Assembly (NCBI GenBank): GCA_041666245.1
Contig: JBAYHG010000008.1
Span: forward strand, 16,049-80,048
Origin: Candidatus Peribacteraceae bacterium
Lineage (GTDB): Bacteria > Patescibacteriota > Gracilibacteria > Peribacterales > Peribacteraceae
Direction: 5' to 3'
DNA: 64,000 nucleotides
A program made the translations under genes and the position numbers. Position 1 is the first letter of the stretch; each line of letters begins with the position of its first letter. Positions 1,530-58,885 of the stretch are shown piece by piece. Under the pieces are notes generated by a model, which ran no database searches, was not told where the DNA came from, and was given only the letters and a program-made list of their open reading frames with translations.

Positions 1530-4500
1530 TCAGCTCTGGTAGTTCGTGGAGTTGACGGACGTGTCTGAGTACTCGACCCAGTTGAAGTCTTGTGCGACGG
1601 CTGTCTGATCCTCGTAGTCGGACCACTGCATGTGGCTCGTCGTGGAGGAGAACGTCGAGTTCGTGCTGGACGCGAAGTCCTGCAGAGACACAAGAATGTT
1701 CGATGTGTTGGTCGCAACGACATCGGGGTTCGTGACATTCGCCCTCAGGACGAAGGTCTTGTTCGAACCTGGATCGATCTTCGTGTCGACCGTTCCCGTG
1801 CGGATATTGTCGCATTGCACGAGGAATGCGCCGGAGTTCGACATGACGATCGGAGTACCGGCTGTCGTGAACGTGTTACACGCGTGGGTCGCCGATGTGT
1901 TGGCCTTGTTGTAGAAGACCCAAGAAGTGTAATCGATGGCAACGTTCGTGGCGGTGACGTTGAAGATCACGCCGGAGAGCGTGAACTTGTTGAGACCGTT
2001 CTTCGTGTTGTTGTTCGTGAGAGCGGAGAACTTGAAGACACCCAGCTCCTTCACGCCAGACGGCACGTTGGAACCGTTTGCATCCGCGTTCGCGTTCACG
2101 ATGGAATCAAGCTTCGAGAGAACGGTGATGTTCTGTGCTCCGGCAATGTACGTCCCGGACGACGTGACCGTCGATGTACCGATGAAGACTTCGCCATCAT
2201 CGGTCTGATCGTCATCGTTGCCCGCGAGGTTGTTGCTGGAATCCACGCCGCGTGCGCGGACCGCGCCCGTACCCGTGGCGCTGCTGTTTGCAGAGTTCAT
2301 ATCGATCCAGAATGACACACCGGTTCCGGAAGTGGCTCCGGACTCGTCGCCCTTCATGCTGGGCTTCACGAGCACATTGACCTCGTCAGCCTTCGGCACA
2401 ACGAGTTGCTGGCTCTGCATGCTGGCGCAGAAAGTCGTGACTTGCGCTTGAGCAGCACCGTTTACGAGACCGGGGTTGAAACCTGGGACATCATCCGATC
2501 CACAGTTGTTCGTCGTGGCGGAAGCGAAAGGTGTCGTCTGTCCGACCTTATAGAGATCGAGACGGTCGACCGACTTCGCCTTGGAACCGGAGGACGTGAG
2601 CTGGAGGTTCGTGATGTCGATCGGCTCGTTGATCGCGCGGAAGTTCAAGCTGAGGACGGATTCACCCAGCGCACCAGCGAGGAGCTGGCGGCTGCGGATG
2701 GTCTCCTTCTTCGTGACGAAGAGTGTTCCCTGCGAGACCAGGCTGTATGACGGGGAATTGGCTGTCGTGACCGTCACGTCGCATGTGCTTGCGCAGGTAC
2801 CGTTCGTCTTGATGCCGGAGAGGCTCGTGCCGCGATCGACGGTCTCCGCCTCAACGTAGGAGGTGGAACCCGTTGCGAAGCGCAACTGGAGCGTCGTGGC
2901 GGTCGTGAGGGACCCCGCGATGTCCGCGTGGACCTCGAACTTCACCGTCTGCTCTTTGCCGACGACGAAGCCGCCGTTTGTGATGCCGTCGAACGTGATG
3001 GTGTTGGCGGAGGCCGACTTCCCGCTGTCGAGGATCGTATCGACCGTGCCGTCGCCATCCGTGTCAACCCAGAGTCCGTAGTTCACGCCGTTCTGGAGGG
3101 CTGTTGCACCGCCCACCGCCTCGAAGATAGCCTTCGTGAGGAGAACGGACTTGGCCTCACCCGCGCGTGCCTCGAACTGGAGGAGACGGATGTTCTTGGC
3201 GTTCTTCACTGCGGTCTCCGTGCTCGTGAGAGACTTGACGGTGACCGTGAAGGACGCATCGGCGATGCGCTGCGCATTACCGACGATGGTGCCGCGAGGA
3301 CGAACATCCTGGACCTTGTCGCTCGTGGAGAGACCCTCGAGTTCCAGGTTCCAAGTCGTGGTCGTCGCGTTCGCCGTGATGCCGTTGAAACTGCATCCCA
3401 CCGTGTTCGTGGCGTTGCTGATTTGAGTGGGCTCACCGCAGATCAAAGCCCTGAATTGATCACCCTGTGTGGGGGAGACGCCTGTGCCGTTGTCGGTGAA
3501 GTCGACCTTCAACTGCCAGTTCTCCGTGCCATTCACGGTGAAGTCATCGAAGCGGTAGATCTGGAAGGTGGCTGTCGTCGCTCCGGCGTTGGTGCCGAAT
3601 TCCGTGGAACCCGTCAGTTGGACGCCCTCGATGGAGCGGCCCGTCGTGGCGTTGCGCAGAGTGACGCTGCTCATCACTTCACTGATATCGTCGAAACTCG
3701 TGCCATTACCATGGCCAACGGCCAAGGTCGCACCGGTAACGGTGTTGCCCTGAACCGCGATGTACATCTTCTTGACGTTCACTGTCTCACCGCCCGTCGT
3801 GAAGACGACGTTGGCGAGGACCGCATCCGTCTGGTCGCGTGTGAAGGTCTGCTGCGACGGTCCGTTGATGGCGATCGTGAACTGTCCCGCATCGACCGTG
3901 ATGGACGAAACGGTCCCCGTGGGCGTACCCACTGAGGAGCCATAGAGCTGTCCGTTGACGCCGTAGCCGTAGAGGGAACCGACCGCGAAGATGTCCGATG
4001 TTTCGTCGAAGTCGATCTGGACTGTCTTGGCTGCGCCGCCGACGAGATCACCGATCACTTCGAGGGTGATCCTGTCGCCCTCGAGAACGGTGAAGGGCGG
4101 GCTGAATGTGAGCGCTGCGAACTTGCTCCTGAATTGATCAACCGAGTTGGTGATGACGGTCTTGTCCGTGCGGCGGATGCGGATGTTCGTGACATCGCCG
4201 TCGGAAACCGTGCCCGCCTGATGGAGGGTCATGGCGTAGAGCGTCTGATCCTCGATGGAGTTCGTGGAAACCTCGAACTTACCGAGAACGACGTCCTTGT
4301 CGCCGACTTCCAAAGCGGAAGGCGTGACGGTGCGGTACGCCACAGAGAGCGTGCCGCTCGTGATTGCTCCCACGCGGAAGCTGTTACCCCGGAGGGGGAA
4401 GTTGCCCGAGAGCGACTTCGCGTTCGTCACGAGATCGGAAGCGAGCTCCACTGCGAAGTTGTGCTCCGCGGAAGCTGTAGCCGAAGTCGCGATGTCCGCA

Positions 4501-5768
4501 ACGACATCGACCGTGACGGTCTTGCAGGCCGGCACGACGAGGGGGGACACGAAGCGAACCTCAGCTGTCTGGTCCTTGGAATCGATGGTGCGCTCGCGGG
4601 AAACGCGACCGCCGTCGATCGTTGCGTACACGGCGTCGATATCTCCTTTGTCACCGAAGCCCTCATGGAGGACGGTGAGTGTCTCGACTGTCACGCTGTC
4701 ATCGCAGGAAGCCGTGAGGTCGAGGGAGAGCATCGGAACGGTGTGGGCACCCTTGGGTACCGTGTCACCGATCGGGTTGCTGGAGGAAACGGTCACTTCG
4801 AGGGTGCCGTTGCCCTGCGGGAGGGCGCTGTATCCCATGAAGGTGGCCGTGTCCGAGAAGGTGTCGCCATCGGCGGTCTTCATGTTGGAGACCGTGAGGG
4901 CGTACTCCTTATTGGCCGTCATCGCGGAGGAGAAGACGAGTTCGACGGTCTTCTCGCTCGTGAGCGTGGCGGACGTGATGGTCAGAGCCGGAGAGACGGC
5001 GTAGTTGGCAATCGTCTCGGCGGCGGTCTTGTCGACAGCGACGTTGAAGTCAACCAGCACTTTCACGGTGGAAGCCGCGGAAGCATTGGAAACTGCCGGT
5101 GCAGCGGTCTGTCCGCCACCGCAGTCAGTGCCGTAGGCGAGGCCCTGATCAACGCGGTTGAGCATGACGACCATTTCTGCGCGGTTCATATTGTCCGTCG
5201 GGCGGACGCGGCCTGTGGCCCCGTCACCCTGGAGGACGCAGTGGTCCGCAGCGATCTGGATCGCGTCGGTGTACCACTGACCGGATGGGTTGTCGACGAA
5301 CGTCGGAGCGTCAGACGTCGACTCGAGCCCGAAGGCGCGAACGATGAGTGCTGCCGCCTCGGCGCGCGAGACGTTGGAGGTGGGCCGGGCGTAGCACGGG
5401 TGGCTGCCGTAGCAGTTACCGTCGCCCTTGACCCAGCCTTCCTTGCCGGCCTCCTCCATGTACCCGTAGAACCAAGCTGACGCCTTGACGTCGTCGAAGC
5501 TCGGAACTGCCGGAGCAGTGGAGAGGATTCCGCCGTTCAGCTCCACGACGAGTTTCGTGAACTCAGCGCGGTTGGCCGTATCGGTGGCCCGGAAATTTGG
5601 CTGTGAGGCATCGAGGTAGCCGGCGTCCGTAAAGGACTTCACGGCCTCCTCATACCACACGCCTGCGGGAACGTCCGCGTAGGCGGCGATTGCTGTCGAC
5701 ACAGTCGAGAGCATCATCGCTACGGCGGAGAACCCTGCGAGGACTTTCTTCAAACGAGAAATGTCCAT
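1530..5768 (-). CDS. S-layer-type surface protein: signal peptide, three SLH domains, long beta-rich repeat region, conserved C-terminal domain (1412 aa)
   Basis: ORF 1530..6092, with start placed at ATG 5768 (MDISRLKKVLAGFSAVAMMLSTVSTAIAAYA, a signal peptide). SLH-like segments: DVPAGVWYEEAVKSFTDAGY, FDDVKASAWFYGYMEEAGKEGW, FVDNPSGQWYTDAIQIAADHCV. The upstream 108 codons of the ORF are Arg/Pro-rich and look like junk. Confidence 0.85.
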   Translation of the reverse strand: MDISRLKKVLAGFSAVAMMLSTVSTAIAAYADVPAGVWYEEAVKSFTDAGYLDASQPNFRATDTANRAEFTKLVVELNGGILSTAPAVPSFDDVKASAWFYGYMEEAGKEGWVKGDGNCYGSHPCYARPTSNVSRAEAAALIVRAFGLESTSDAPTFVDNPSGQWYTDAIQIAADHCVLQGDGATGRVRPTDNMNRAEMVVMLNRVDQGLAYGTDCGGGQTAAPAVSNASAASTVKVLVDFNVAVDKTAAETIANYAVSPALTITSATLTSEKTVELVFSSAMTANKEYALTVSNMKTADGDTFSDTATFMGYSALPQGNGTLEVTVSSSNPIGDTVPKGAHTVPMLSLDLTASCDDSVTVETLTVLHEGFGDKGDIDAVYATIDGGRVSRERTIDSKDQTAEVRFVSPLVVPACKTVTVDVVADIATSATASAEHNFAVELASDLVTNAKSLSGNFPLRGNSFRVGAITSGTLSVAYRTVTPSALEVGDKDVVLGKFEVSTNSIEDQTLYAMTLHQAGTVSDGDVTNIRIRRTDKTVITNSVDQFRSKFAALTFSPPFTVLEGDRITLEVIGDLVGGAAKTVQIDFDETSDIFAVGSLYGYGVNGQLYGSSVGTPTGTVSSITVDAGQFTIAINGPSQQTFTRDQTDAVLANVVFTTGGETVNVKKMYIAVQGNTVTGATLAVGHGNGTSFDDISEVMSSVTLRNATTGRSIEGVQLTGSTEFGTNAGATTATFQIYRFDDFTVNGTENWQLKVDFTDNGTGVSPTQGDQFRALICGEPTQISNATNTVGCSFNGITANATTTTWNLELEGLSTSDKVQDVRPRGTIVGNAQRIADASFTVTVKSLTSTETAVKNAKNIRLLQFEARAGEAKSVLLTKAIFEAVGGATALQNGVNYGLWVDTDGDGTVDTILDSGKSASANTITFDGITNGGFVVGKEQTVKFEVHADIAGSLTTATTLQLRFATGSTSYVEAETVDRGTSLSGIKTNGTCASTCDVTVTTANSPSYSLVSQGTLFVTKKETIRSRQLLAGALGESVLSLNFRAINEPIDITNLQLTSSGSKAKSVDRLDLYKVGQTTPFASATTNNCGSDDVPGFNPGLVNGAAQAQVTTFCASMQSQQLVVPKADEVNVLVKPSMKGDESGATSGTGVSFWIDMNSANSSATGTGAVRARGVDSSNNLAGNDDDQTDDGEVFIGTSTVTSSGTYIAGAQNITVLSKLDSIVNANADANGSNVPSGVKELGVFKFSALTNNNTKNGLNKFTLSGVIFNVTATNVAIDYTSWVFYNKANTSATHACNTFTTAGTPIVMSNSGAFLVQCDNIRTGTVDTKIDPGSNKTFVLRANVTNPDVVATNTSNILVSLQDFASSTNSTFSSTTSHMQWSDYEDQTAVAQDFNWVEYSDTSVNSTNYQS

Positions 5769-5949
5769 AAGGTAGGGAAGAAAAAGGAAATAAAAACGAA
5801 GGGAGATGAAGATGGGTATTCGTGAGGAAGGGGAGTGCGACTCCCTGGCGTCTTTCGCCTCGTGTCGTGAGATGAGCGCCCGCCGCCGGAAATGTCCGGG
5901 GAATAGGGGCACTCTTCTCCTTAAATATAAAGAGCACACACCAAGTGAA

Positions 5950-5966
5950 GACACCTTATATATAGG
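5950..5966 (-). promoter_or_regulatory. 17-nt motif CCTATATATAAGGTGTC (minus strand), ~180 nt upstream of the SLH-protein start; candidate promoter or operator
   Basis: Exact 17-mer gacaccttatatatagg on the plus strand, repeated at 6575-6591. It has a near-palindromic TATA-like core. A second TATTTAAGG box lies ~30 nt downstream on the minus strand. Confidence 0.35.
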
Positions 5967-6346
5967 GAATCGTAATCGTCCCCTGAGAAGAGGACAGATC
6001 AGCACTCTGGATACGAGACACGACCCTGCCCGTCTCGCAGCACAAAGGAAGCGAACGGGAGGATGTGATTCTTGTCCTGTTGGACAGGGCAAGCTGCCGA
6101 ATTGTCAAGGAACACGTACGTATGATCCTGCCCACCTTCTGCTGAGCAGATCAGCGGGATACTAGCGAAACGGCTCCATTTGAAGCAAGCCTCGCAGTCT
6201 CAAAGGTGGCAGGACAGAGAACGCAATGGATCCATGTGCGTTACGCACGCTCAGGAGCCATGTGGGGCTTTAAATCAATAATTTTTGCAGCAAATGCGAT
6301 TTTCTCCGATGATTTCACACGCGAAATGGCTGCTCTCCTCGAAATT

Positions 6347-8370: not shown

Positions 8371-8494
8371 CGGGACCAGTATAAGGATGGAAGGACTTGC
8401 CGCATATGAAATTGCCAGGCGTTCGAGTGAACGCCTGGCGGGAGCCGCAAGAGTTGCGACCCCTGAATCGCCAGAGTGGCGATTCTAGACCGCC

Positions 8495-8848
8495 CTAATT
8501 GAGGGCGACGACTTTGGCTCCTTGTGTTGGCCACAGAGGGACATCTCTGGGAGCCAGCACCTCAACATGAGCCGTACGGTCCTCGATCCAGGTCAGCTTC
8601 ACCGTGATGAAGCCCGCAATGATCACCGTTTGATCAAGCTTGCGAGTGAAGACCAATGGACCCTTGCGACAGTTCTTCCCTGCGGCGGGAACTTCCCCCC
8701 GGCAAACGGGGAGATAGGGAGCACGGATCAACACTTTGATCCTCGTCGCTCCGACTGAAGCAACAGTCACTCTGGACTTTCGACCGATCCGGATTTCGGA
8801 GCCCGCAGGACATGTGAATGTGCTGGGCAAGAAATCAGATGTGACCAT
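8495..8848 (-). CDS. Two-domain (fused tandem) CsrA-like protein, 117 aa
   Basis: ORF 8495..8908. Start placed at ATG 8848, which is preceded by GGAGG (8858-8862) in a string paralogous to the csrA leader. Half 1 (SEIRIGRKSRVTVASVGATRIKVLIRAPYLPVCRGEV) and half 2 (PLVFTRKLDQTVIIAGFITVKLTWIEDRTAHVEVLAPRDVPLW) both align to the neighbouring CsrA. Confidence 0.55.
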   Translation of the reverse strand: MVTSDFLPSTFTCPAGSEIRIGRKSRVTVASVGATRIKVLIRAPYLPVCRGEVPAAGKNCRKGPLVFTRKLDQTVIIAGFITVKLTWIEDRTAHVEVLAPRDVPLWPTQGAKVVALN

Positions 8849-8970
8849 GTCGCAAATCCTCCATGAAAGGAGCAGGATCCTTCTCTCCCCTTCCATGCGT
8901 GCAAGCACGCCGCGTCTTCATGACGCTACTGAGGAGATACGGACTGCGAGAATACTAGAGGACTAATGCT

Positions 8971-8999
8971 AAATAATCAAGTTTTATTATATTTGTCAA
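8971..8999 (-). promoter_or_regulatory. Sigma70-like promoter candidate for the CsrA-like gene
   Basis: Minus strand reads TTGACA (8994-8999), a 17-nt spacer, then TTATTT (8971-8976), within an AT-rich gap. Confidence 0.3.
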
Positions 9000-9024
9000 A
9001 TATAGAGATTATGGCTATTTAAAA

Positions 9025-9054
9025 GAAAAAAACCGGCGGGATGAGCCGCCGGTT
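9025..9054 (-). terminator. Intrinsic terminator of csrA
   Basis: 8-bp stem accggcgg (9032-9039) / ccgccggt (9046-9053), loop gatgag. On the minus strand the stem is followed by a run of 7-8 T. Confidence 0.75.
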
Positions 9055-9105
9055 TCCTCAGGCCTAGGCCTGAAATTCGTTTTCTCTTCTCGCCCATCCG
9101 GACCG

Positions 9106-9324
9106 TCAATCCACGGGCTCTCCGGAGGACGCGGAATCAGGCGGAGATTGGGGTGCTCGAGGAAGTCCGGCAGACGTGCCTATGAGCTCGCTACGTACGA
9201 TGGGCACTTCAACTGGAGCCTCGATGCCGAGGCGCACGTGGCGACCCTTCACCTCGAGGACCGTGACAGTAATGCCTGAGCCGATCTGAATCTTTTGATC
9301 GGCTTTCCGTGTGAGGACCAGCAT
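9106..9324 (-). CDS. csrA: Carbon storage regulator CsrA (RNA-binding translational regulator), 72 aa
   Basis: MLVLTRKADQKIQIGSGITVTVLEVKGRHVRLGIEAPVEVPIVRSELIG matches the CsrA consensus (MLxLTRK ... GIxAPxxVxxxRxE). ATG 9324 is preceded by GGAGGG (9331-9336). Confidence 0.85.
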   Translation of the reverse strand: MLVLTRKADQKIQIGSGITVTVLEVKGRHVRLGIEAPVEVPIVRSELIGTSAGLPRAPQSPPDSASSGEPVD

Positions 9325-9357
9325 TGCAAACCCTCCATTGTTGGGACCAGACCGAGT

Positions 9358-10629: not shown

Positions 10630-10718
10630 GCTACGACTTTTTTGCTTGAACTAGGGCTCTATGGGATTTGACACACAAATCATTTCAATTTTTAGTATAT
10701 TATGACAAGCTGATCGCG

Positions 10719-11072
10719 ATGAACTTCAACCGTGTCAGTGTCATAGGGATCATCAATACGAATGGAGAAGAAAATAAACCAGTGTGGAGATACCGTCAGG
10801 AAGCTGCGGATCTTTTGAAAGGGAGACTGAAACTGCTGGGGGTAGAGGATGTGTTCGTCGACGATTATAACGGAAAAGTGGATGAGGACACGGGAGAAGG
10901 GGGAACCTCGATCTGCGTCATCGGCATCCTTTGCTCGCGAGAGCAGGTTCGACGAGTCGTGGAGATTGCGAGAGACATGTGCGATGGTCTGTTCGCCGAG
11001 GTCGTCCCGACTGATCTGGTGGATACCGCGCAACCCGAAGAACCTCCGGCATTCGCCTTCGGAATGCCTTGA
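10719..11072 (+). CDS. Hypothetical protein (117 aa)
   Basis: ORF 10668..11072 with ATG at 10719 (MNFNRVSVIGIINTNGEE). TTGACA at 10668-10673 and TAGTAT at 10693-10698 lie upstream. No family recognised. Confidence 0.45.
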   Translation: MNFNRVSVIGIINTNGEENKPVWRYRQEAADLLKGRLKLLGVEDVFVDDYNGKVDEDTGEGGTSICVIGILCSREQVRRVVEIARDMCDGLFAEVVPTDLVDTAQPEEPPAFAFGMP

Positions 11073-11227
11073 AAAATCTCCGCCTCCAAGCTGCTGGAGT
11101 GAATGCGAGGGGAGATAATACCGCAGTTTTCCGCAGGGGGAAGGTAAACACCGGTACAAAAGCAAGGATGCATTTGACCGTGGAGACACAGACGGTATCG
11201 TACCGGCCTTCATTCTTTCCCTTCTCC

Positions 11228-11668
11228 ATGCCACCACTCAACGAGGCACAGAAACCTTGGTACTACTCCGCCAACTCGTACAGCGCGAAAATCGCCGGTC
11301 GTCCCAAGGAAATCGAGAGAGAAGATATTCCCGGTAACGTACAGCAGAGGCTTGATACTGCCGGTCTCCTGGCCGTGGCCCGCCCTTTTGATAATCAGTC
11401 GCGCACCTTCCGCATCGAAACCCACCGAGAGGTGACCTGCGACCAACTTGCTCAGGCACTCAAAGGTCTCCCCGTGCATCTCCAACTGACCCCCACCGCC
11501 CTATCGATGTGCTCCGGAGATCCTAAGGTGCTGGCAGGACTTGCGGCGGGGAGGCAATCCGAAGCGTCTGCTGTCGCAACTGAAGGGCCGGTGATCATCC
11601 CATTTGCACAGCCGAACACAACGGAAGAAGCAGGAACGACGGAAGAAGCCGCGGAGGGTGGAGCCTGA
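11228..11668 (+). CDS. Hypothetical protein; start uncertain (11168 or 11228)
   Basis: ORF 11069..11668. The N-terminal part of the ORF is Arg/Gly-rich. MPPLNEAQKPWYYSANSY begins at 11228. No family recognised. Confidence 0.35.
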   Translation: MPPLNEAQKPWYYSANSYSAKIAGRPKEIEREDIPGNVQQRLDTAGLLAVARPFDNQSRTFRIETHREVTCDQLAQALKGLPVHLQLTPTALSMCSGDPKVLAGLAAGRQSEASAVATEGPVIIPFAQPNTTEEAGTTEEAAEGGA

Positions 11669-28676: not shown

Positions 28677-28911
28677 TTCAGAGATTTCAGACAATCCCAA
28701 CAGGCCGTTGTGCGATAACGCTTGTCCCTGGAATGTCCAGGTGGGTGACCGCATCTCCGGACCACGGTCCGAAGTGATTAAGTCTCCCTATACAAGTGTC
28801 AGAGAAGAAACGTACACGCACTGACGAGCCGTCGAGACTGTCTGTCATGCTACGCACGCCCTCGGGGGGCCGCCAGCAAATTGAACAGACTTAAAGTACA
28901 CTTTCCCTCCT

Positions 28912-49753: not shown

Positions 49754-52700
49754 TCAGTTGAAGAAGTACCTGGTGGATTCCACGTACCCCAGTGAATCCT
49801 CCGCCCAACGGAAAGATGTCGCCGAGCCCTGATCTGCATCTTCCCAGAGCAAGTGACTTCCGGTCGTCCCGAAGGAGAGACCGGGCTTGTTGAACTGCCG
49901 GAGCGAAACGATGAGCTGCGATGATTTCGCATCATCCACTTTGGGATTCAGGATCGTGACACGGAGCTTGAAGGTGGAGGATGTCCCTTGCTCGATCTGC
50001 GTATCCAAGACGCCGTCCCGCAGGTTGCAGTATGCGAGGAAGGAACCGGAGATTTCACCCGTGAGCTGCGTACCCGTCTTCGAGTAGGCCCTGCAGGACC
50101 TCACCACGTCCGGAGCAGCGCTGTTGTAGAATTGAAGGCTGTCGGCGTTGACCGTGACGTTGGCCGTGACGACGTTGAAGTATGCGCCGGAGAGTGCGAT
50201 CACGTTGAGGCCGTCCTTGGTATTGACGTTCGCGGCGGCGGAGAATGTGAAGGCTGCGACATCCTTCGCTCCTGCAGAGAGCGCGGTATTGTCTGCATCC
50301 TCATTTGCATCCGTAATGGAGAGGACTTTCGCGTACACCGGATACTGAATCGTGCCGTAGACGGTTTTGTTCTTCGTCGCGGGATTCACCAGGCGGTCAC
50401 TGGGGAAGACGAGGATTTCGCCCGCCGCGGCGCCGTTGCCGTCGTTGATCGAGAGCGGAACTGAATTCCCGGCACGAACTTCCGACGCTTCGATGCCATC
50501 CGGCGGGAGTCCGAGCTGGAAGACCTGGTGCGAAGAAGTCTGTTCATCGGAATTCGCGAGGACCCGCACCGAGAGGATGTCTCCGGCCGTTTCCGTGAGG
50601 GAAAGTCCCGTCTGAGACAGATCTGCACAGAGCATGAAGTTCGAACCAGATCCGCAGGCGGCGGCTGTCGCGTGTGCGATCGGCTCCGTCCCGCCCTTGC
50701 GGAAGATTTGCGCTTCTGCGACGGACGGATGCGGCCGGCCGTCATTGGTGATCACGTTGAATCCGATCGTATCGATGCGCACCGTATTGCCGCTGTCACC
50801 CAGATTCCCCGCTTTCAGCTTCAGCTGGAGCGCGGCCTTGCCGAGCGTGCCGCCGAGGAGCTGCGTCTGCGTACTCGTGACTGCGGTGATCGTGAGCGTC
50901 GCTTCGGGCGGCGGTATGCACGCTCCATCTCCACAGACGGATTCTGTCGGACAGGATTGCTCCTCAAGCACGATGGTGGATCCGGAGCAGGAGTACTCGC
51001 CGATCATTCCGTCCTCTCCGCAGTAGTCCACCTGCGTGACGAAGCTCCCGCTGCCGTTCGGTCCTGTCACGGTCGTCCCCTTCACGGAGAGGACCTTGCC
51101 GCTGTCGGAATCTGTGCAGGTTTCGCTCCTGCAGGCGCTATTGCACCCATCACCGTCATCATTGTTATCGTCATCGCACTCTTCCGTGCCGACCTTGATG
51201 CCGTCACCGCATGTCGAGGTGCACAGGCTGGGCTCCACATCCGGTGCGCATTCGAAGCCCACTTCCCTGGCACAGGAAGACGAACAGCCATCCCCGTTCA
51301 CGGAATTACTGTCGTCACATTGCTCCTCACCGGCCTTCTTCCCGTCACCACACTCCGTGGCACAGATCGAGAGGCTACCGGACTCGGAACAGACCCATCC
51401 ATGCTCCTGCGAACAGGAGTTGCACCCGTCATTCTCAGTGTCATTGCCGTCATCACACTCCTCTCCCTCCTCTACGACACTGTTCCCGCATTCCGCCACC
51501 TGCGGGATCTCCGTGCACTCGCTCGGCTCACCCGCACACTCCCAACCGTCGTCAATCATGCCGAGAGTACAGCCGTCGCCGTCGGTCGTATTGGCATCAT
51601 CGCATTCCTCGGTCCCGGTGATGAGACCGTCGCCGAAGATGGAGGCGCACTCGCTCTGACCCGCCTCATCCGGATTGCACTCCCAGCCGTTCTCAATCAT
51701 GCAGTACACCGAGCAACCGTCGCCGTTTCCATCATTGCCGTCGTCGCACTCCTCGCTCACTTCCGTATCCACCCAACCGTCGCCGCAGGGCGCGATGGGC
51801 AGATTGAGACAATCATGAGGACAGTTACAGGCATTCTCCCCGAGACCGCAGACGCCGTCGCCGCAGAGCGTGCAGAGGAAGCTGCCGTCTTCGTTGACTG
51901 CACAGTCACCTTCGCTGTCCCGCTGTGCGTTGCTGACGGAGATCAGATCTTCGCAACAAGCATCGTTCGTGAGGCCGCTGCCTTCCTTCCCTTCCTCGAT
52001 ACAGGCAGAGGGAATTCCACAGTCCTCGGGGCAGGCGTAGCAGGACTCGTCACACGAGTCATTCGTGCCGTCGCACCGCGTACAGGAGGTATCCTCCACT
52101 GTCATGCAGAGGCCATCACCGCAGAACGGCGCACAGACGCTCCTGCACTGCTCCGGCTCGGTCGTGCTGCCGCTCCCGGTCAGCTGAGCCCGGACAAAGG
52201 AGAAGAGGGAAGCGAAGAATGACCGCAGAGAGGCGAGAGGACCTTCGGAGGAAGTGCCGGTCGTGCCGCATTCCACGTAACACATCCAGCCGGTTTCGAC
52301 GGTGCAGGTCGCGGAACAGCCGTCGCCGTCGATCACGTTACTGTCATCACACTCCTCACCAATGAGTGTGGGAACCTGCGGATCGAAGAGGTAACGGAGA
52401 GCGATTTCGCCGTCGTAGTCTGCTTCCAGGGAACCGTTGCCGTCGATGTCGTAGTAATCCTCAAGATGTGATCCGATGAAGGCGAGAATTTCTCCGGGAG
52501 TCGTCCTCGTCGCGCCGGACCCGATGACGCCATTGACGAGTGTCGCACCCGTCATACCGGACATGTAGCGATTGAGCAGGAGACCATCAGAGAGCGCTTC
52601 CTGCGTTCCGTTGCCATCGAGATCGAGATCGATCATACCGAGGTACTGACGCACCTCACTGGCCTTCACGCGCGTCGCGGAGGGGCCGACAGAGGTTGCC

Positions 52701-55700
52701 AGCAGACCGTCGCCGCAGGAATCAACGAGCGTGAATCCGTTGTCGCTCACGTCGAGGTTGCAGTCATCCTCTTGGGAATCAATGCATACAACCCCTGCTG
52801 CATTCCTCGAGACGACAATGACACGATATGGACCGGGGGAAAGCTCCTTCACTTTCCAGCAGGTTTTCATATCCGCTGCACATACCTCCTCTCCTCCCCA
52901 CGTAATGGAATCATCGGGAGAACTCTCGCGTGTAATCCATCCGAGGATCATGTTCCTGTCCGTGTCGAATTGGTGGTCTACGAGCCCGATCATCACCCAA
53001 CCGCTTCCGCCGGACCACCGGATGGTATTGGGCTGACCCAGCTTGAAACTCTCGCCGCCATTGGGCTCGAGCACTGTGACCGCGACCATGGGAGCGATGG
53101 AGGAGGAGGCTTCGGAAGAAGAACTTTCCTCAGAAGACGAGGATCCGGAACTGACGGAGGATGAGCTCTCCTCAGACGATGAAGAGGAACTGGAGGAGGA
53201 TATGTGGCAATCCTGCGGGCAATTGCAGAATCCTTCACCGAGATCGTCGTCACACACGCCATTGCCGCAGGGGAGACAGAGAGCGCCACTGGCGAGCGGG
53301 AGGCACACCCCATTGTCATCGGGTGTCTTGAAAGTTGTCGTTCCCGTGAGTCCATCACAACAGGTATGACCGAGAGCAACGGGCATGATGACCCCAGTGG
53401 AAGTGCAAGGAATGGAGGAGCTGGAAGAGGAAGCCGGATTCGGGCTGCAGATCGAAAGGCTTCCTGACTGCGTGCAGGTGAAACCTGTCTCGAACGTGCA
53501 CGTCGCGGAGCAGCCGTCTTCGTCCGCTGTATTGTGATCGTCACACTCTTCTGCTCCGGTCTTGATACCGTCTCCACAAATCGTGGCACAGACGGAGGGC
53601 GATCCGTCGCACACCCAACCAGTCTCGACAGTGCAGATCGCGGAGCAGCCGTCGCCGGCCTCCGTGCTGTCATCGTCGCATCCCTCGTCACCCGTGATCA
53701 CACCATCTCCGCACTCGGAGGCGGAACTGGAGGCGGAGCTGGAGGAAGGTGCATGCAGACAGGCCCCGCTGTCGCACCCGAATCCACAGGGGACAACCGT
53801 GCTATGCAACCTCCGTGTTCCTTCGGTGCAGACATACTCGGCAACAGCGCACCCTGTGCCGCTGCACTGGGAGACACTGTAGTAGAGCGTGCCTCCGGTG
53901 GAAGACTGGACCTGGAGGCAGGTATCCACGGTGTCTTCGCCATCGGCGGTCACCGTGCCGACTGTGAAGGAATCTTCGCCGTCGGAATCATGACAGGTGT
54001 GCGGCTGACAAAGTGAATTGCACGTACTGTCTTCCGTGCCGTTGCTCGTTCCTTCGTCGCACTCCTCGCCGGTCTCAAGCGTACCGTTACCGCATACGGG
54101 GGCTGCGGAACTGGAAGAAGAAGCTGGATTCGGGCTGCAGATCGAGAGGCTTCCGGACTGCGTGCAGGTGAAACCTGTCTCGACCGTGCAGGTCGCGGAG
54201 CAGCCGTCGCCGGAGTCCGTGTCATCGTCATCACAATCCTCCCCGATGAGCGACTCCGTGCTCTGCGGGTCGAAAAGGAAACGCATGATGATATGACCGT
54301 CGCGTTCGACGACGAGGAGATTGTCTCCATCGATATCATAGGTGCGTCCCTGATTCTGTCCGTAGATGAACGCCGCGACTTGCGCACCGGTCGTCCGGGT
54401 TGCACCGGATCCCGTGGCACCATTGACGAGCGTTGCACCCGTTTGGCCCAACATGTAGCGCTGGAAGAGGATGCCATCGGAGAGGGCGTCCTCTGTGCCG
54501 TTGCCATCGGCGTCCAGATCGATCGTGCCCAGGTACTGCCGGATGACCGCGTTCGTCGTGCGCATCGCGCTCGTTCCGACTGTCGTTTCCAGGAAACCAT
54601 TGCCACATTCCTCTTCAGCACACCGTTCCGAGCAGCCGTCACCGGAGATGATGTTGCCGTCATCGCACTCTTCGACCCCCTTCACCATTGAATCTCCACA
54701 GACCGCGGCACATTGACTGTGACAGTCCGTCGGGGGACCTGTCTGTGCGATCGGCCCCAGGACATCCCCGAGGAGCGAAGCGACGACGTTGCGGAAGAAG
54801 CCCCAGAACCCGCTCACCTGCGGATTGGGACAGATGGTGTTACAGACCCAGCCGGTCTCGACCGTGCAGGTACCGGAGCAGCCGTCGTTGGCAATCGTGT
54901 TTCCATCGTCGCAGAGTTCATCCGCCTGGATAGTGCCATCGCCACACTCGACGGCGATGGAGCTGGAGGAAGAAGAAGTCGGATTCGGGCTGCAGATCGA
55001 GAGGCTTCCGGACTGCGTGCAGGTGAAACCTGTCTCGACCGTGCATGCAGCGGAACAGCCGTCGCCCGGGGTCGTGTTGTGGTCGTCACACTGCTCGGTG
55101 CCTGTCGTGAAGACGGCGCCGTGGTTGGTCCCGTTGTTGCCATAGCCGCTGGCATCGTCGGCATTGCCGTCGAAAGCGTAGGAAGCGACGAGCTGGCTTC
55201 CAGCCGCGTCGGCAAAGATCTTCAGATCCTCGATCTCGCCGTTAAAGTTCTCATTGTACGGATCTCGCCACTTGCCGATGAGGAGACGCTCGTTGTTGGT
55301 CCGGATCCCGACGGTGGTGGCATTGGCGGTCGCGACGATGGCGCCGTCGATGAGGAGCTTCATATTCGGCGCAGGCGCCGTTTTCCCGTACGTGCCGACG
55401 ATGTGGTACCAGCGATTGGTCTGAATGACGCTGCTCCAGATGCCGTTGTCCGCTCCGTTCGCGTCGAAGAAACCGAAAGCCAGCCTGTTGCCTTCGGGGA
55501 ACTTGTGGCCAAGGATGCCGTACGCTCTGCTGGCATCGGCGGTGTCACTGCCCTTCAGGACGACGTAGGTCCAATCCTCACTGAAGTCGCCGTTGAGCTT
55601 GAGCCAGAGGTCAATGGTCATGCCTGAACTGAGGTCAAGACTGGCGCTGTCGGGAGCGTCGATGTAACTGGTGGAACCATTGAAACCGGCGTCTTGGCCA

Positions 55701-58700
55701 ATCCTAATGCCGTCACCACAGAGCGAGCCACAGACGGAGGGGGTGCCGTTACACACCCATCCGGTCTCGACCGTGCAGGTGGTTGAACAACCATCGCTCG
55801 CAGCGATATTGCCGTCGTCACACTGTTCATTCCCCTGGATAATGCCATTACCACATATGGGGGCTATGGAACTGGAGGAAGAACTGGAAGAGGAGGCTGG
55901 AAGAGAGGAGGAGCTGAGAGAGCTGGAGGAGGCTGGAAGAGAGGAGGAGCTGGAACAGGCGGCTGCGGCCATCTTGATATCACCGACGTTTACCTGCGCC
56001 GATCCCTTGGGGAAGCTTATGCCGTAGCGATCCTGCGCCGCCTGCGCGATATCCACGTACACCTCCGAACGTCCCGGGCCCGCATACACCCCGATATACA
56101 CCGCCCGGTGACAATCCTTGTTGAGGTACGCGAACACTTGCTGCGCCGTCGTGACAGAGGGATCAACGGTGAACTGAAATTTCCCGTCGTTATCCGTCTT
56201 CGCATCCGCCGGCATGAACGGCAAAGGACTCGTGACGAAGGCATTCACAATAGGAGCATTCGACACTGCATCCAGGAGCCGTCCCATCACCGTCACGGGG
56301 GGATTTTGAACGGAGGACGATGAGGAAGAAGCGGAACGGACACAAACGCTCGGCACTCCGCTGCAAACCCAGCCGCTCTCGATCACGCATGCGACGGAAC
56401 AACCGTCACCGGCTTTCATGTTCCCGTCGTCGCACTGCTCTGTTCCCTCCTTCTGGCTGTCGCCGCAGAGGATAGACTCACTCACGTCGAGCGGGGAGAC
56501 GCACTCAGGATCGGGAGTGGTTCTCACCCACGTTCCGGAGAGAGGCTGGAACGATCTGCCTGGGGATCCGAAGCCGAACGCGTAGTCCGCGTATCCCATC
56601 TTGTTGGTGTTTTCCAGATAGAAGACCGATGTCTTCGAGTCGTAGAGACCGACCGTATCCGTTCCGTCACTGTCCCAATCGCCCGCCGTCGGAGTCCATC
56701 CTGCTCCCGGATCACCGTAGCCGAACATGATGTCTGCATATCCGGTGGTGTTGGAGTTGCGCAGGTGGAACCAGGATGTGACGGGGTCGTAGACACCGAT
56801 CGTGTCCTTTCCGTCCTTGTCCCAATCACCCGCGATGGCGATGGCCCCGGGGAAACTGTACGGGAACTGGAGGTCCGCATTGCCGGACGAGTTGGTATTG
56901 CGCAGATAGAAGGTGAGAGCCTTCGGATCGAAGAGACCGATGGAATCCTTCCCGTCTCCGTCCCAGTCTCCCGCAAGGGGAGTCAGCCCCGTATTCGGAG
57001 TCCCGAACCCAAACGTCATGTTTGGATTTCCTCCTGCGAGGGAATCCCACAACGAGAAGGTGGATGTCGCAGGATCGTAGAGTCCCGGCGTTTCGAGTCC
57101 GTCGCCGTTCCAGTCACCCGCAATGGATCGCTGCCCGGTCCTCCCTAGGGGGAGCGTGACCGCACCCATTCCCCTGCTATACCCAAGGTAGAACACGCCC
57201 GCAGGATCGTAGACGCCGATCTTCCCCGCCCAGGCGTTCGCAGCGTCGATCTTGCCGTCACCATCGTTGTCGACGCCATCGGTGCACTGCATGAACGGTT
57301 TGCAGGAAGTCGCTGTGCTGCTGCTCTCGGTACAGAGCCAACCCCCCTCCACCACGCAGGTGGAGGAACAGCCGTCGCCGGAAGCGGTATTTTTGTCATC
57401 ACAGGACTCGTCGCCCATTCGAATGCCGTCACCGCATGTGGTTGTACATGCAGACGAGCAACCGTCATTTTCAACTGCATTCTTGTCATCACACTGCTCC
57501 GCCCCGACGACGATGCCGTCGCCGCAGGACGGCACACAGGTACTCGGTACTCCGGAACATGCCCAACCGGCTTCCGGCGCGCAGGCGGCGGAACAACCGT
57601 CACCGGAGATGATATTTCTGTCGTCGCACAACTCATTGGAATCGGGGACTCCATTGCCGCAGAGCTTCTGACAAACGCTCGGTGAGCCGCCGCATGTCCA
57701 GCCACTCTCCAGCGTGCACGTCGAGGAGCAACCGTCGCCGGAAATCACGTTCTTGTCATCACACTGCTCCGCCCCGACGACGATGCCGTCGCTGCAGGAC
57801 GACACACAGGTACTCGGTGCTCCGGGACATGCCCAACCGGCTTCCAGCACGCAAGTGGCGGAGCAACCATCATTGCCATTCTGGTTGCCATCGTCACACG
57901 CTTCCGGCGCTTCGATAACGCTGTCACCGCAGAACGGCGACTCACTCGTGTCCATCGCGGAGAGACACTGCGGATCTCTGTCCATGGTCCGCCACTTCCC
58001 CGACACAGGCAGCCAATTCGGGGCTCCGTATCCGAAGCTGATATCCGCGGTGCCGGACGTGTTGGAATTGCGCAGGTGGAACCAGGATGTGGCGGGGTCG
58101 TAGACACCGATCGTCGTTGTCCTGTTTCCATCCCAGTCACCCACGACCGGCAGCCAGCCGCTGTTTGCCGCACCGAAGGCGACCGTGAGATCCGCCTCTC
58201 CCGACGTGTTGGAATTGCGGAGGTAGAAGGTTGATTTCTTCGCGTTGTAGAGACCGATTGTTTCCGTGCCGTTACCATCCCAATCCCCGGCCACCGGAAG
58301 CCATCCCGCAAGAGGAGTGCCGAATCCGATTTCCAGATCCGCCGTTCCCGTCGTGTTGCTGTTCCTCAGGAAGAACTTGGAAGTTCTCGGGTTGTAGAGA
58401 CCGATTGTTTCCGTGCCGTTGCCATCCCAATCCCCGGCCACCGGAAGCCATCCCGCATTCGGTGTTCCGAAGGAAACCTCCTGATCCGCCACCCCTGTCG
58501 TGTTGGAATTGCGGAGATAGAATTTCGCCTCCGCCTGATTGTAGAGACCGATCGTCACCGCACCATCGCCGTCCCAGTCTCCGATAACGGGCTTCGCGCC
58601 GGCCATCCCGAACGACGCCATGCTGTTTGCCACGCCTGTCGACAGACTGTTGCGAAGGTAGAAGGTCATCGATGTCGGGTCGAGAAGACCGATGCCATCC

Positions 58701-58885
58701 GTACGCAAGACCGTTCCACGAACATCCGCAGTCTGGTCGCCGTCATTGTCGATGCCGTCATTGCACTGTGGTGCCGACGTCTGCGCCAGGAAGGACCGTG
58801 AGAGGGTTGCCGTGGCTCCGGTGAGAGCGACGACCGCAAGGGCGAGGAAGACTTTCCTCGACCAACCGAGAAGGGCGGTTTCCAT
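49754..58885 (-). CDS. Giant secreted multidomain surface protein (3043 aa): FG-GAP/VCBS-like repeats, ~19 Cys-rich CxxDDxNxxxGDGCSxxC repeats, LamG-like domain, dockerin-like EF-hand pairs, Ser-rich linkers, conserved C-terminal domain
   Basis: Uninterrupted 9.1-kb ORF with a signal peptide (KVFLALAVVALTGATA). Repeats: GDWDG(D/N)GxxTIGLY...FYLRNSNTxGxAD, EQCDDGNxxxGDGCSxTCxVExGWxC, a LamG-like block (FNGSTSYIDAPDSASLDL ... FNGEIEDLKIF) and dockerin-like DLDADGNGTEDALSDGILFQRYMLG. Confidence 0.9.
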   Translation of the reverse strand: METALLGWSRKVFLALAVVALTGATATLSRSFLAQTSAPQCNDGIDNDGDQTADVRGTVLRTDGIGLLDPTSMTFYLRNSLSTGVANSMASFGMAGAKPVIGDWDGDGAVTIGLYNQAEAKFYLRNSNTTGVADQEVSFGTPNAGWLPVAGDWDGNGTETIGLYNPRTSKFFLRNSNTTGTADLEIGFGTPLAGWLPVAGDWDGNGTETIGLYNAKKSTFYLRNSNTSGEADLTVAFGAANSGWLPVVGDWDGNRTTTIGVYDPATSWFHLRNSNTSGTADISFGYGAPNWLPVSGKWRTMDRDPQCLSAMDTSESPFCGDSVIEAPEACDDGNQNGNDGCSATCVLEAGWACPGAPSTCVSSCSDGIVVGAEQCDDKNVISGDGCSSTCTLESGWTCGGSPSVCQKLCGNGVPDSNELCDDRNIISGDGCSAACAPEAGWACSGVPSTCVPSCGDGIVVGAEQCDDKNAVENDGCSSACTTTCGDGIRMGDESCDDKNTASGDGCSSTCVVEGGWLCTESSSTATSCKPFMQCTDGVDNDGDGKIDAANAWAGKIGVYDPAGVFYLGYSRGMGAVTLPLGRTGQRSIAGDWNGDGLETPGLYDPATSTFSLWDSLAGGNPNMTFGFGTPNTGLTPLAGDWDGDGKDSIGLFDPKALTFYLRNTNSSGNADLQFPYSFPGAIAIAGDWDKDGKDTIGVYDPVTSWFHLRNSNTTGYADIMFGYGDPGAGWTPTAGDWDSDGTDTVGLYDSKTSVFYLENTNKMGYADYAFGFGSPGRSFQPLSGTWVRTTPDPECVSPLDVSESILCGDSQKEGTEQCDDGNMKAGDGCSVACVIESGWVCSGVPSVCVRSASSSSSSVQNPPVTVMGRLLDAVSNAPIVNAFVTSPLPFMPADAKTDNDGKFQFTVDPSVTTAQQVFAYLNKDCHRAVYIGVYAGPGRSEVYVDIAQAAQDRYGISFPKGSAQVNVGDIKMAAAACSSSSSLPASSSSLSSSSLPASSSSSSSSSIAPICGNGIIQGNEQCDDGNIAASDGCSTTCTVETGWVCNGTPSVCGSLCGDGIRIGQDAGFNGSTSYIDAPDSASLDLSSGMTIDLWLKLNGDFSEDWTYVVLKGSDTADASRAYGILGHKFPEGNRLAFGFFDANGADNGIWSSVIQTNRWYHIVGTYGKTAPAPNMKLLIDGAIVATANATTVGIRTNNERLLIGKWRDPYNENFNGEIEDLKIFADAAGSQLVASYAFDGNADDASGYGNNGTNHGAVFTTGTEQCDDHNTTPGDGCSAACTVETGFTCTQSGSLSICSPNPTSSSSSSIAVECGDGTIQADELCDDGNTIANDGCSGTCTVETGWVCNTICPNPQVSGFWGFFRNVVASLLGDVLGPIAQTGPPTDCHSQCAAVCGDSMVKGVEECDDGNIISGDGCSERCAEEECGNGFLETTVGTSAMRTTNAVIRQYLGTIDLDADGNGTEDALSDGILFQRYMLGQTGATLVNGATGSGATRTTGAQVAAFIYGQNQGRTYDIDGDNLLVVERDGHIIMRFLFDPQSTESLIGEDCDDDDTDSGDGCSATCTVETGFTCTQSGSLSICSPNPASSSSSAAPVCGNGTLETGEECDEGTSNGTEDSTCNSLCQPHTCHDSDGEDSFTVGTVTADGEDTVDTCLQVQSSTGGTLYYSVSQCSGTGCAVAEYVCTEGTRRLHSTVVPCGFGCDSGACLHAPSSSSASSSASECGDGVITGDEGCDDDSTEAGDGCSAICTVETGWVCDGSPSVCATICGDGIKTGAEECDDHNTADEDGCSATCTFETGFTCTQSGSLSICSPNPASSSSSSIPCTSTGVIMPVALGHTCCDGLTGTTTFKTPDDNGVCLPLASGALCLPCGNGVCDDDLGEGFCNCPQDCHISSSSSSSSSEESSSSVSSGSSSSEESSSSEASSSIAPMVAVTVLEPNGGESFKLGQPNTIRWSGGSGWVMIGLVDHQFDTDRNMILGWITRESSPDDSITWGGEEVCAADMKTCWKVKELSPGPYRVIVVSRNAAGVVCIDSQEDDCNLDVSDNGFTLVDSCGDGLLATSVGPSATRVKASEVRQYLGMIDLDLDGNGTQEALSDGLLLNRYMSGMTGATLVNGVIGSGATRTTPGEILAFIGSHLEDYYDIDGNGSLEADYDGEIALRYLFDPQVPTLIGEECDDSNVIDGDGCSATCTVETGWMCYVECGTTGTSSEGPLASLRSFFASLFSFVRAQLTGSGSTTEPEQCRSVCAPFCGDGLCMTVEDTSCTRCDGTNDSCDESCYACPEDCGIPSACIEEGKEGSGLTNDACCEDLISVSNAQRDSEGDCAVNEDGSFLCTLCGDGVCGLGENACNCPHDCLNLPIAPCGDGWVDTEVSEECDDGNDGNGDGCSVYCMIENGWECNPDEAGQSECASIFGDGLITGTEECDDANTTDGDGCTLGMIDDGWECAGEPSECTEIPQVAECGNSVVEEGEECDDGNDTENDGCNSCSQEHGWVCSESGSLSICATECGDGKKAGEEQCDDSNSVNGDGCSSSCAREVGFECAPDVEPSLCTSTCGDGIKVGTEECDDDNNDDGDGCNSACRSETCTDSDSGKVLSVKGTTVTGPNGSGSFVTQVDYCGEDGMIGEYSCSGSTIVLEEQSCPTESVCGDGACIPPPEATLTITAVTSTQTQLLGGTLGKAALQLKLKAGNLGDSGNTVRIDTIGFNVITNDGRPHPSVAEAQIFRKGGTEPIAHATAAACGSGSNFMLCADLSQTGLSLTETAGDILSVRVLANSDEQTSSHQVFQLGLPPDGIEASEVRAGNSVPLSINDGNGAAAGEILVFPSDRLVNPATKNKTVYGTIQYPVYAKVLSITDANEDADNTALSAGAKDVAAFTFSAAANVNTKDGLNVIALSGAYFNVVTANVTVNADSLQFYNSAAPDVVRSCRAYSKTGTQLTGEISGSFLAYCNLRDGVLDTQIEQGTSSTFKLRVTILNPKVDDAKSSQLIVSLRQFNKPGLSFGTTGSHLLWEDADQGSATSFRWAEDSLGYVESTRYFFN

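Follow-up and report, generated by a model that had tools for sequence, protein, structure and literature searches.

A tandem CsrA-like protein of a Candidatus Peribacteraceae bacterium with one predicted RNA-binding surface

Can a CsrA-type regulator function with a single RNA-binding surface? CsrA is a widespread bacterial post-transcriptional regulator whose action is usually explained via bivalency, i.e. the bridging of two GGA motifs and the sequestration by multi-site sponge RNAs, and whether a single surface suffices for useful regulation has so far been studied only in engineered heterodimers and fusions. The question is raised by a gene in the genome of a Candidatus Peribacteraceae bacterium (assembly GCA_041666245.1, contig JBAYHG010000008.1, positions 16,049 to 80,048; this stretch of 64,000 nucleotides is referred to as the window), which is located beside a canonical csrA gene and encodes a protein of 117 amino acids (aa). 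An earlier note on this DNA, made from the sequence without database searches, had described this open reading frame (ORF) as two fused CsrA-like halves that together appear to retain one composite RNA-binding surface. The coordinates of the ORF were found to be exact (Table 1), and the CsrA profile PF02599 matches its translation twice.

Two CsrA units with unequal predicted RNA surfaces

The complete fused protein scores 41.5 bits against PF02599 (cut-off 27 bits, E = 1.3e-10) over two collinear stretches, residues 16-53 corresponding to profile positions 9-47 and residues 65-104 to positions 2-41. Scanning each half alone, as the earlier note had proposed, detected similarity in both (E = 1e-3 for half 1 and E = 1.5e-5 for half 2), and the same two domains were recovered by an independent hidden Markov model (HMM) built from 31 single-domain CsrA sequences and E. 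coli CsrA. The csrA equivalog models of NCBIfam are not reached (31 bits versus 73), so that the fused protein is to be regarded as a member of the CsrA family and not as an equivalog. It fails the canonical family traits of a small-subunit homodimer, a C-terminal helix and two identical surfaces.

In CsrA, each sheet takes its central strands (beta2-beta4) from one subunit and its peripheral strands, beta1 and beta5, from the other; beta1 and beta5 of opposing monomers run parallel and together build the two RNA surfaces, with L4 and R44 being critical (PMC7652899); the RNA site has also been described as beta1'/beta4/beta5 (PMC5864733). Since these surfaces are built across opposite protomers, a fused chain has two distinct ones. 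We defined site X as beta1 of half 1 together with beta4' and beta5' of half 2, i.e. the two chain ends, and site Y as beta4 and beta5 of half 1 together with beta1' of half 2, i.e. the strands flanking the linker.

The critical residues are distributed very unequally over the two sites. On site X, Leu2, Arg6 and Lys7 (E. coli CsrA numbering) of beta1 are changed to Ser, Cys and Pro, respectively; the L, V, L and R of this strand are 97-100% conserved in 33 tandem relatives, where the fused protein of the window has V2 or S9 (depending on the alignment), T, F and C. In beta5', Arg44 is replaced by Pro107, Glu46 by Gln109 and Ile47 by Gly110, the Arg and the Glu being present in 33/33 relatives, and in beta4' Arg31 is replaced by H94 and the invariant Gly33 by E96 (Gly in 33/33 relatives; Val93 in 29/33). 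On site Y, Arg50, Glu52 and Val53 occupy the positions of Arg44, Glu46 and Ile47 of beta5 (the R50 column is conserved in 32/33 and the E52 column in 31/33 relatives), L65 and R69 of beta1' match columns conserved in 31-32 of the 33, and F67 is a conservative change which also occurs in one relative (P0003). The motifs read in the earlier note, PVCRGEV kept in half 1, LVFTRK kept in half 2 and VPLWPTQ in place of VxRxE in half 2, are all confirmed by these alignments. The retained beta1' and the retained beta5 come from opposite halves and therefore belong to the same composite surface, while the two degenerate elements, likewise from opposite halves, belong to the other. One predicted composite RNA surface is thus lost and the other keeps every critical residue, which agrees with the single retained surface proposed in the earlier note.

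This asymmetry is also seen when conserved positions are counted. At positions conserved in at least 80% of 15 compact relatives (see below), the fused protein is identical at 0/9 on site X, 7/8 on site Y and 14/31 elsewhere. When the 33 tandem relatives are used with a threshold of at least 85%, 21 columns qualify, of which it keeps 1/9 on site X (the initiator Met only), 4/5 on site Y and 7/7 elsewhere. Fisher's test gave p = 0.0004 for site X versus site Y in the first comparison (calculated by hand from the counts) and p = 0.0004 for site X versus all other columns (1/9 versus 11/12) in the second, values that are indicative only since the relatives are not independent. An N-terminal MLVLxR and a C-terminal Arg44 are kept in all 50 two-domain relatives, and the window protein alone is without both.

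Structure prediction with AlphaFold2 gave a mean pLDDT of 86.6 and a pTM of 0.79 with a 9-sequence alignment, and 88.4 and 0.81 with a 34-sequence alignment. The strands are predicted at residues 6-14, 18-21, 25-32, 36-42 and 47/48-50 in half 1, and at residues 65-70, 74-77, 81-89, 92-100, 105-107 and 112-114 in half 2, with no helix in either half; confidence dips in the linker (block mean 66-75), where the second model gives residues 53-60 as a strand. The predicted fold is confident, compact and all-beta; its 5+5 strands follow the order of two CsrA units, with one extra C-terminal strand after them. The earlier note had stated that half 1 lacks the first strand: the loss of its motif holds (STFTCP for LVLTRK), but a strand is predicted at residues 6-14. 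It had also asked for an interleaved CsrA-like fold, with which the compact all-beta model agrees in its strand order. A Foldseek search of the model against the Protein Data Bank (PDB) returned no significant match, a null result that is uninformative since CsrA chains in the PDB are halves of an interleaved dimer, even the engineered Re-CsrA being deposited as two chains.

Re-CsrA, composed of CsrA(1-44)-GGGGSGGGGS-CsrA, folds, binds both RNA and the protein CesT, and was crystallised (PDB 5Z38; PMC5864733), and by this precedent a single-chain CsrA architecture is known to be feasible. From this construct, together with the obligate interdigitation of CsrA units and the high pTM of the monomer model, we infer an interleaved topology for the fused protein. 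The computational results favor the putative pseudo-dimer with one intact surface as a structural interpretation, within two limits: the model speaks for strand order and compactness, and the single-site state is seen in no relative.

The fused gene, its relatives and its surroundings

When 1.84 billion representative proteins were scanned exhaustively with HMMER, only 11 matches were obtained, most of them spanning both halves in one chain, and a profile search with five compact members yielded many more; according to the domain table, 51 proteins including that of the window contain two CsrA units, i.e. there are 50 relatives. A compact group of 103-116 aa includes proteins of Candidatus Peregrinibacteria, Peribacteraceae and Ca. 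Peribacter riflensis (P0013-P0022) whose only name at NCBI is "carbon storage regulator". This compact family is characterized by a helix-less first unit and a linker of the form R-x-E-x-P-x-x-G...G, to which R50, E52, P54, G57 and G63 of the fused protein correspond; its N-terminal extension of 7-8 residues and its C-terminal tail are found in no relative aligned. The fusion is therefore not what is new in the window: about 50 natural two-domain relatives, as recognised by their domains, are unannotated in databases, and it is the asymmetry of the putative surfaces that is new. The tandem-CsrA family, previously undescribed, is unremarkable in itself, and its single-site derivative is the interesting part.

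The tandem and the canonical csrA genes are located between a class-I aldolase gene (fba/DeoC) and cysS in the window and in two further genomes: a Peregrinibacteria bin (L001, CAIKAD010000005), which has fba, canonical csrA, tandem csrA (P0003), cysS and a long adjoining ORF, and Ca. Peribacter riflensis (L004, CP013064), which has rnpA, yidC, fba, two csrA genes, cysS and an SLH gene. In L004 (5001-5945) the two csrA genes stand in the reverse order (fba, tandem, canonical, cysS) compared with the window (8495-9324) and L001 (5380-6291), both of which have fba, canonical, tandem, cysS; this indicates a putative local rearrangement or independent placement. Synteny and best matches both make a Peregrinibacteria genome the most likely origin of the window. 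The search for orthologs and their co-occurrence with csrA suggested in the earlier note thus found a conserved fused gene in synteny with canonical csrA, but the single-site state was found in none of the relatives.

Other natural two-unit proteins depart from the symmetrical arrangement in their own ways. Thirteen proteins of 87-105 aa (P0042, P0044, P0045, P0046, P0050, P0051, P0052, P0059, P0060, P0064, P0072, P0081 and P0106) form a class that resembles a partial internal duplication, with beta1-beta4, a degenerate segment (e.g. GVTINLQE, having Leu/Gln for Arg) and beta2'-beta5' followed by the helix. Their N-terminal MLVLTRR and C-terminal VTINREEV are intact, the site Y strands are lost or degenerate, and their contigs are short; the class is possibly a second, independent route to a single-site, single-chain CsrA. 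In two longer tandem proteins, P0038 (137 aa) and P0028 (134 aa), the Arg44 position of half 1 is occupied by Asn; P0038 is also without a recognisable beta1'. By these residues they are predicted mirror images of the window protein, the surface flanking the linker being degenerate and the terminal surface intact.

The integrity of the gene was examined from its codons, from an independent copy and from its divergence. The codon-frame score of the fused ORF is +0.28 per codon, a value reached by 0/500 out-of-frame windows (-0.59 ± 0.21); in-frame housekeeping windows score 0.72 ± 0.18 and the canonical csrA +0.34. As the signal is positive but weak, codon usage was set aside as a proof of coding. 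Two metagenome scans and a word-based protein search for close relatives yielded a single other copy, on a JGI metagenome contig of 1174 bp (L002) that covers the ORF from residue 19 onward and part of cysS, differs from the window by 1 synonymous change over 1174 nt and confirms the 3' two-thirds of the ORF. A frameshift or assembly error behind the odd termini was rejected, the other two frames being without MLVLTRK- or VxRxE-like sequence at both ends. Identity between the tandem CsrA proteins is 42% for the window versus L001, 34% for the window versus L004 and 38% for L001 versus L004 (three-way identities among the same genomes are 63-66% for CysRS and 79-84% for the aldolase). The overall divergence of the window copy thus does not exceed that between the two-site orthologs, which argues against general decay.

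Between the fused ORF and the canonical csrA lie a terminator-like hairpin and an AT-rich region, and the terminator of the canonical gene, the promoter-like stretch and the hairpin downstream indicate that the fused ORF is arranged as its own transcription unit (Table 1). A simple sigma-70 consensus scan did not call the promoter-like region at 8952..8999. The sequence TTGACA...CTTGAT(T/A) is found upstream of the tandem csrA in 3/3 genomes (window 8975-8999 on the minus strand, L001 5807-5840, L004 4838-4860) and may be a conserved promoter or operator element. The Shine-Dalgarno (SD) context of the fused ORF, ATGGAGGaTTTGC, is close to that of the canonical csrA, ATGGAGGgTTTGC (9337..9325). 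Two alternative starts were rejected: a GTG at 8908, which would give 137 aa, is without an SD and gives an N-terminus unlike that of the relatives, and the public gene call P0001 (91 aa, GTG) is likewise without an SD, disagrees with the N-termini of the relatives and would remove beta1 and beta2.

The AGGA in the predicted leader hairpin and the GGA of the SD have a geometry like that of classical CsrA targets, a hint at a candidate CsrA-binding pair. The hairpin was obtained from a minimum-free-energy fold with a z-score of only -1.4 and is thus without statistical support, and in the L001 leader, where the GGA sits in a stem, its geometry is not conserved. On these two grounds the leader RNA was rejected as a conserved CsrA target.

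Table 1. Features of the fused csrA-like gene and of the adjacent canonical csrA (coordinates in the window).
Feature	Coordinates	Strand	Description
Fused two-domain CsrA-like coding sequence	8495..8848	minus	117 codons + TAG; from ORF list and sequence
Half 1, residues 1-53	8690..8848	minus	7-8 residue N-terminal extension, degenerate beta1, beta2-beta5, no C-terminal helix
Degenerate beta1, residues 9-14	8807..8824	minus	Site X; STFTCP for LVLTRK
Retained beta5, residues 46-53	8690..8713	minus	Site Y; LPVCRGEV
Linker, residues 54-64	8657..8689	minus	PAAGKNCRKGP; takes the place of the first unit's helix
Half 2, residues 65-117	8498..8656	minus	Intact beta1', beta2'-beta4', degenerate beta5', extra C-terminal strand, no helix
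Retained beta1', residues 65-70	8639..8656	minus	Site Y; LVFTRK
beta4', residues 92-98	8555..8575	minus	Site X; TAHVEVL
Degenerate beta5', residues 103-110	8519..8542	minus	Site X; VPLWPTQG
Shine-Dalgarno GGAGGA	8862..8857	minus	8-nt spacer to ATG at 8848; read from sequence
Predicted leader hairpin	8863..8896	minus	AGGA (8881..8878) in loop, ~20 nt upstream of the SD GGA
AT-rich promoter-like region	8952..8999	minus	TTGACA 8999..8994; TTGATT 8980..8975, 17 nt, TAGTAT 8957..8952
Terminator-like hairpin 3' of fused gene	8414..8439	minus	11 pairs, 8 G-C; weak T tract (AATTTCATAT)
Canonical single-domain csrA	9106..9324	minus	72 aa; PF02599 76 bits, profile 1-48
Intrinsic terminator 3' of canonical csrA	9026..9059	minus	Strong; 14-pair stem, then T run

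The canonical csrA scores 61-62 bits against the NCBIfam csrA models, under their equivalog cut-offs of 70-73. Its product is without a recognisable C-terminal helix sequence, VPIVRSEL being followed by the Pro/Ser-rich IGTSAGLPRAPQSPPDSASSGEPVD; the orthologs in L001 and L004 carry the usual EVYDAIKR-type helix. The identity of canonical CsrA is 53% over 47 aa for the window versus L001, 40% for the window versus L004, and 73% for L001 versus L004. The window copy is thus the most diverged of the three, and both CsrA proteins of the lineage appear to evolve unusually fast. Scanning the 64 kb with the independent HMM revealed no CsrA-like ORF beyond these two genes.

Several other features of the window were recorded. 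The interval separating fba from yidC contains two adjacent ORFs (10668-11668, plus strand; 134 aa and 199 aa, with a 4-nt overlap), for which Pfam gave no match. In Ca. Peribacter riflensis this interval is missing and yidC lies directly beside fba; the pair may be a lineage-specific insertion. A match to 6S RNA (SsrS) was found at 28689-28842 on the minus strand (50.1 bits versus an Rfam gathering score of 46.4). The giant ORF at 49754-58885 (minus strand, 3043 aa) encodes 13 DUF4215 repeats and a Laminin_G_3 (concanavalin-like) domain, and its product is probably a surface or adhesin-type protein. Another very large ORF, at 1530-6092 on the minus strand, adjoins cysS and displays N-terminal SLH-like repeats by sequence pattern; the ortholog in L003/L004 has a faint PF00395 match, this neighbour is kept in 3/3 genomes, and the product is presumably an S-layer protein.

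Proposed role and competing explanations

With moderate confidence, we favor the reading that the fused ORF is genuine and encodes a single-chain CsrA pseudo-dimer, a monovalent GGA-binding paralog beside the canonical csrA. In the scenario proposed, an ancestral csrA would have been duplicated in tandem and then fused, and the helix of the first copy would have been replaced by a short Pro/Gly linker, which would allow the two five-beta units to interdigitate within one polypeptide. In Candidatus Peregrinibacteria the fused gene is conserved alongside the canonical csrA, with fba and cysS on either side. In the lineage of the window, site X would subsequently have lost Arg6, Lys7, Arg31, Gly33, Arg44 and Glu46, and the terminal extensions would have been gained. 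With site X lost and site Y keeping every critical residue, one GGA per molecule is expected: site Y alone would bind a single motif, and bridging of two GGA sites would not occur.

The consequences of such an arrangement can be anticipated from a heterodimer with one R44A subunit (Mercante 2009), which binds RNA but cannot bridge two sites, full repression of glgC requiring both pockets (PMC7652899). By analogy, the fused protein would repress dual-site leaders such as that of glgC incompletely. It would also bind multi-site leaders and sponge RNAs with less avidity than the bivalent canonical dimer does, and would most likely serve as a second, monovalent translational regulator acting at single GGA or SD sites, where it would modulate or compete with canonical CsrA. 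We infer that it binds RNA, that it is monovalent in practice and that it has this physiological role. A broader reading is that tandem fusion freed the two CsrA surfaces to evolve independently and that monovalent CsrA was made repeatedly: the window protein would have kept the surface at the linker, and the unrelated partial duplications of 87-105 aa, like P0038, the terminal one. The window protein would then act beside the bivalent canonical CsrA as a non-bridging competitor or fine-tuner at GGA/SD sites, adding to Csr regulation a level that depends on neither sponge RNA nor FliW. We put this reading forward tentatively, as a possibility with less than even chances.

Several observations weigh against the monovalent paralog, and some of them would suit a redundant copy that is being lost under relaxed selection, its termini having drifted and its single site being a snapshot of decay. 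The single-site state is a singleton in the searches, found in only one sampled lineage, L002 representing the same population. The CsrA HMM scores of the fused protein are the lowest among its relatives (17.5 and 30 bits for the two halves), its codon-frame score lies below all 500 in-frame housekeeping windows, and the public gene call shortens it to 91 aa. Moreover, the changes concern both chain termini, of which site X is composed and which in general erode more readily than the rest of a protein, so that two neutral terminal changes would mimic the loss of a site, and residues 1-18 lie outside the coverage of L002. Other points concern the surface that is retained: site Y adjoins the linker and is without a following helix, the equivalent site of Re-CsrA being incomplete for CesT binding; other natural variants lose site Y rather than site X; and the strand pairing of the interleaved topology comes from the indirect argument given above, Foldseek having returned no match.

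Decay is nevertheless considered unlikely. The ORF is intact and has a strong SD and a terminator, there are no frameshift remnants of MLVLTRK or VxRxE in other frames, and AlphaFold2 confidence is high. The low codon score is a weakness common to csrA, the canonical gene having the same atypical usage, and the divergence of the fused protein equals that between two-site orthologs. The losses are also selective, 11/12 conserved positions outside site X being kept, including all critical residues of site Y, versus 1/9 on site X. Against terminal erosion, E96 and H94 are internal, and in all relatives the termini are the best-conserved parts of the chain.

The same remodelling of site X could instead have created a bifunctional adaptor, in which site Y binds GGA RNA and the N-terminal extension, the extra C-terminal strand, the loss of positive charge and the gain of a Trp and a Phe make site X a surface for a protein partner, comparable to the binding of FliW or CesT by CsrA, or for a different RNA motif. 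Site X is indeed replaced and not deleted, its strands (6-14, 105-107 and 112-114) being predicted as ordered at high pLDDT; the terminal extensions are unique to the window protein, and protein antagonists are known to dock on the RNA-binding surface of CsrA (PMC5864733). We regard this as quite unlikely, given that no candidate partner gene is located nearby, the neighbours being housekeeping genes and no FliW-like gene being found among the window ORFs scanned, and that the remodelled surface occurs in no relative, which leaves a new function without evidence from conservation. An intermolecular assembly, either a domain-swapped tandem dimer or a hetero-assembly with canonical CsrA, would contain two retained sites in a new geometry and would not be monovalent. 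CsrA units are obligate interdigitating partners (PMC7652899), a linker of 11-14 residues would leave room for swapping, and the AlphaFold2 model was computed for the monomer only. That model, however, puts both halves in one compact unit (pTM ~0.8), and Re-CsrA, which has a similar linker, behaves as a separate unit of 12.5 kDa, one CesT dimer being bound by two such units (PMC5864733); we consider such an assembly very improbable.

If the monovalent reading is true, a natural single-site, single-chain CsrA beside a normal csrA would be a ready-made evolutionary experiment, for which P0003 and P0021 provide two-site controls. The analysis also exposes an unremarked tandem-CsrA family in Peregrinibacteria, a lineage of the Candidate Phyla Radiation for which nothing on CsrA-type regulation was found in the open literature.

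Comparison with known CsrA systems

No description of a natural tandem or single-chain CsrA was found in the open literature. The statement of the earlier note that a single-chain, single-site CsrA is undescribed consequently holds for natural proteins; it has to be qualified by the engineered Re-CsrA, the R44A heterodimer and the 50 natural two-domain relatives.

The canonical reference is the CsrA/RsmA/RsmE homodimer, with the structures 1Y00, 2BTI and 2JPP. Similar to it, each half of the fused protein belongs to PF02599 and has the same five-strand order, GGA is the presumed ligand, and site Y has Leu2, Leu4 (as Phe), Thr5, Arg6, Lys7, Val42, Arg44, Glu46 and Ile47 (as Val). In contrast, the window protein is one chain of 117 aa instead of two of about 60-70 aa, is without the C-terminal helices, and has non-identical surfaces, one of which is without Arg6, Arg44 and Glu46, so that it is predicted to be monovalent. 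That the structure of CsrA-family proteins can be rearranged without loss of the RNA-binding surface has a precedent in RsmN/RsmF of Pseudomonas, a variant of rearranged topology with a helix inserted between the strands, which forms a homodimer with two equivalent sites and, unlike the window protein, involves no tandem fusion.

Among the engineered systems, Re-CsrA is similar in its helix-less first unit, its linker of ~10 residues, its single chain and its two non-equivalent surfaces. It folds into a core resembling the CsrA dimer. It is artificial, and its asymmetry is opposite to that of the window protein: in Re-CsrA the site flanking the linker is compromised by the missing helix and the terminal site is intact. 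The R44A heterodimer combines one working RNA surface with a disabled one on the scaffold of a CsrA dimer, as is predicted for the window protein, but it is artificial, composed of two chains, and disabled by a single point mutation. The closest counterparts are the natural tandem CsrA proteins P0021 (105 aa, Ca. Peribacter riflensis) and P0003, which have the fusion, the linker motif and the genomic slot in common with the window protein and differ from it in that both surfaces keep Arg6, Arg44 and Glu46 and that terminal extensions are absent.

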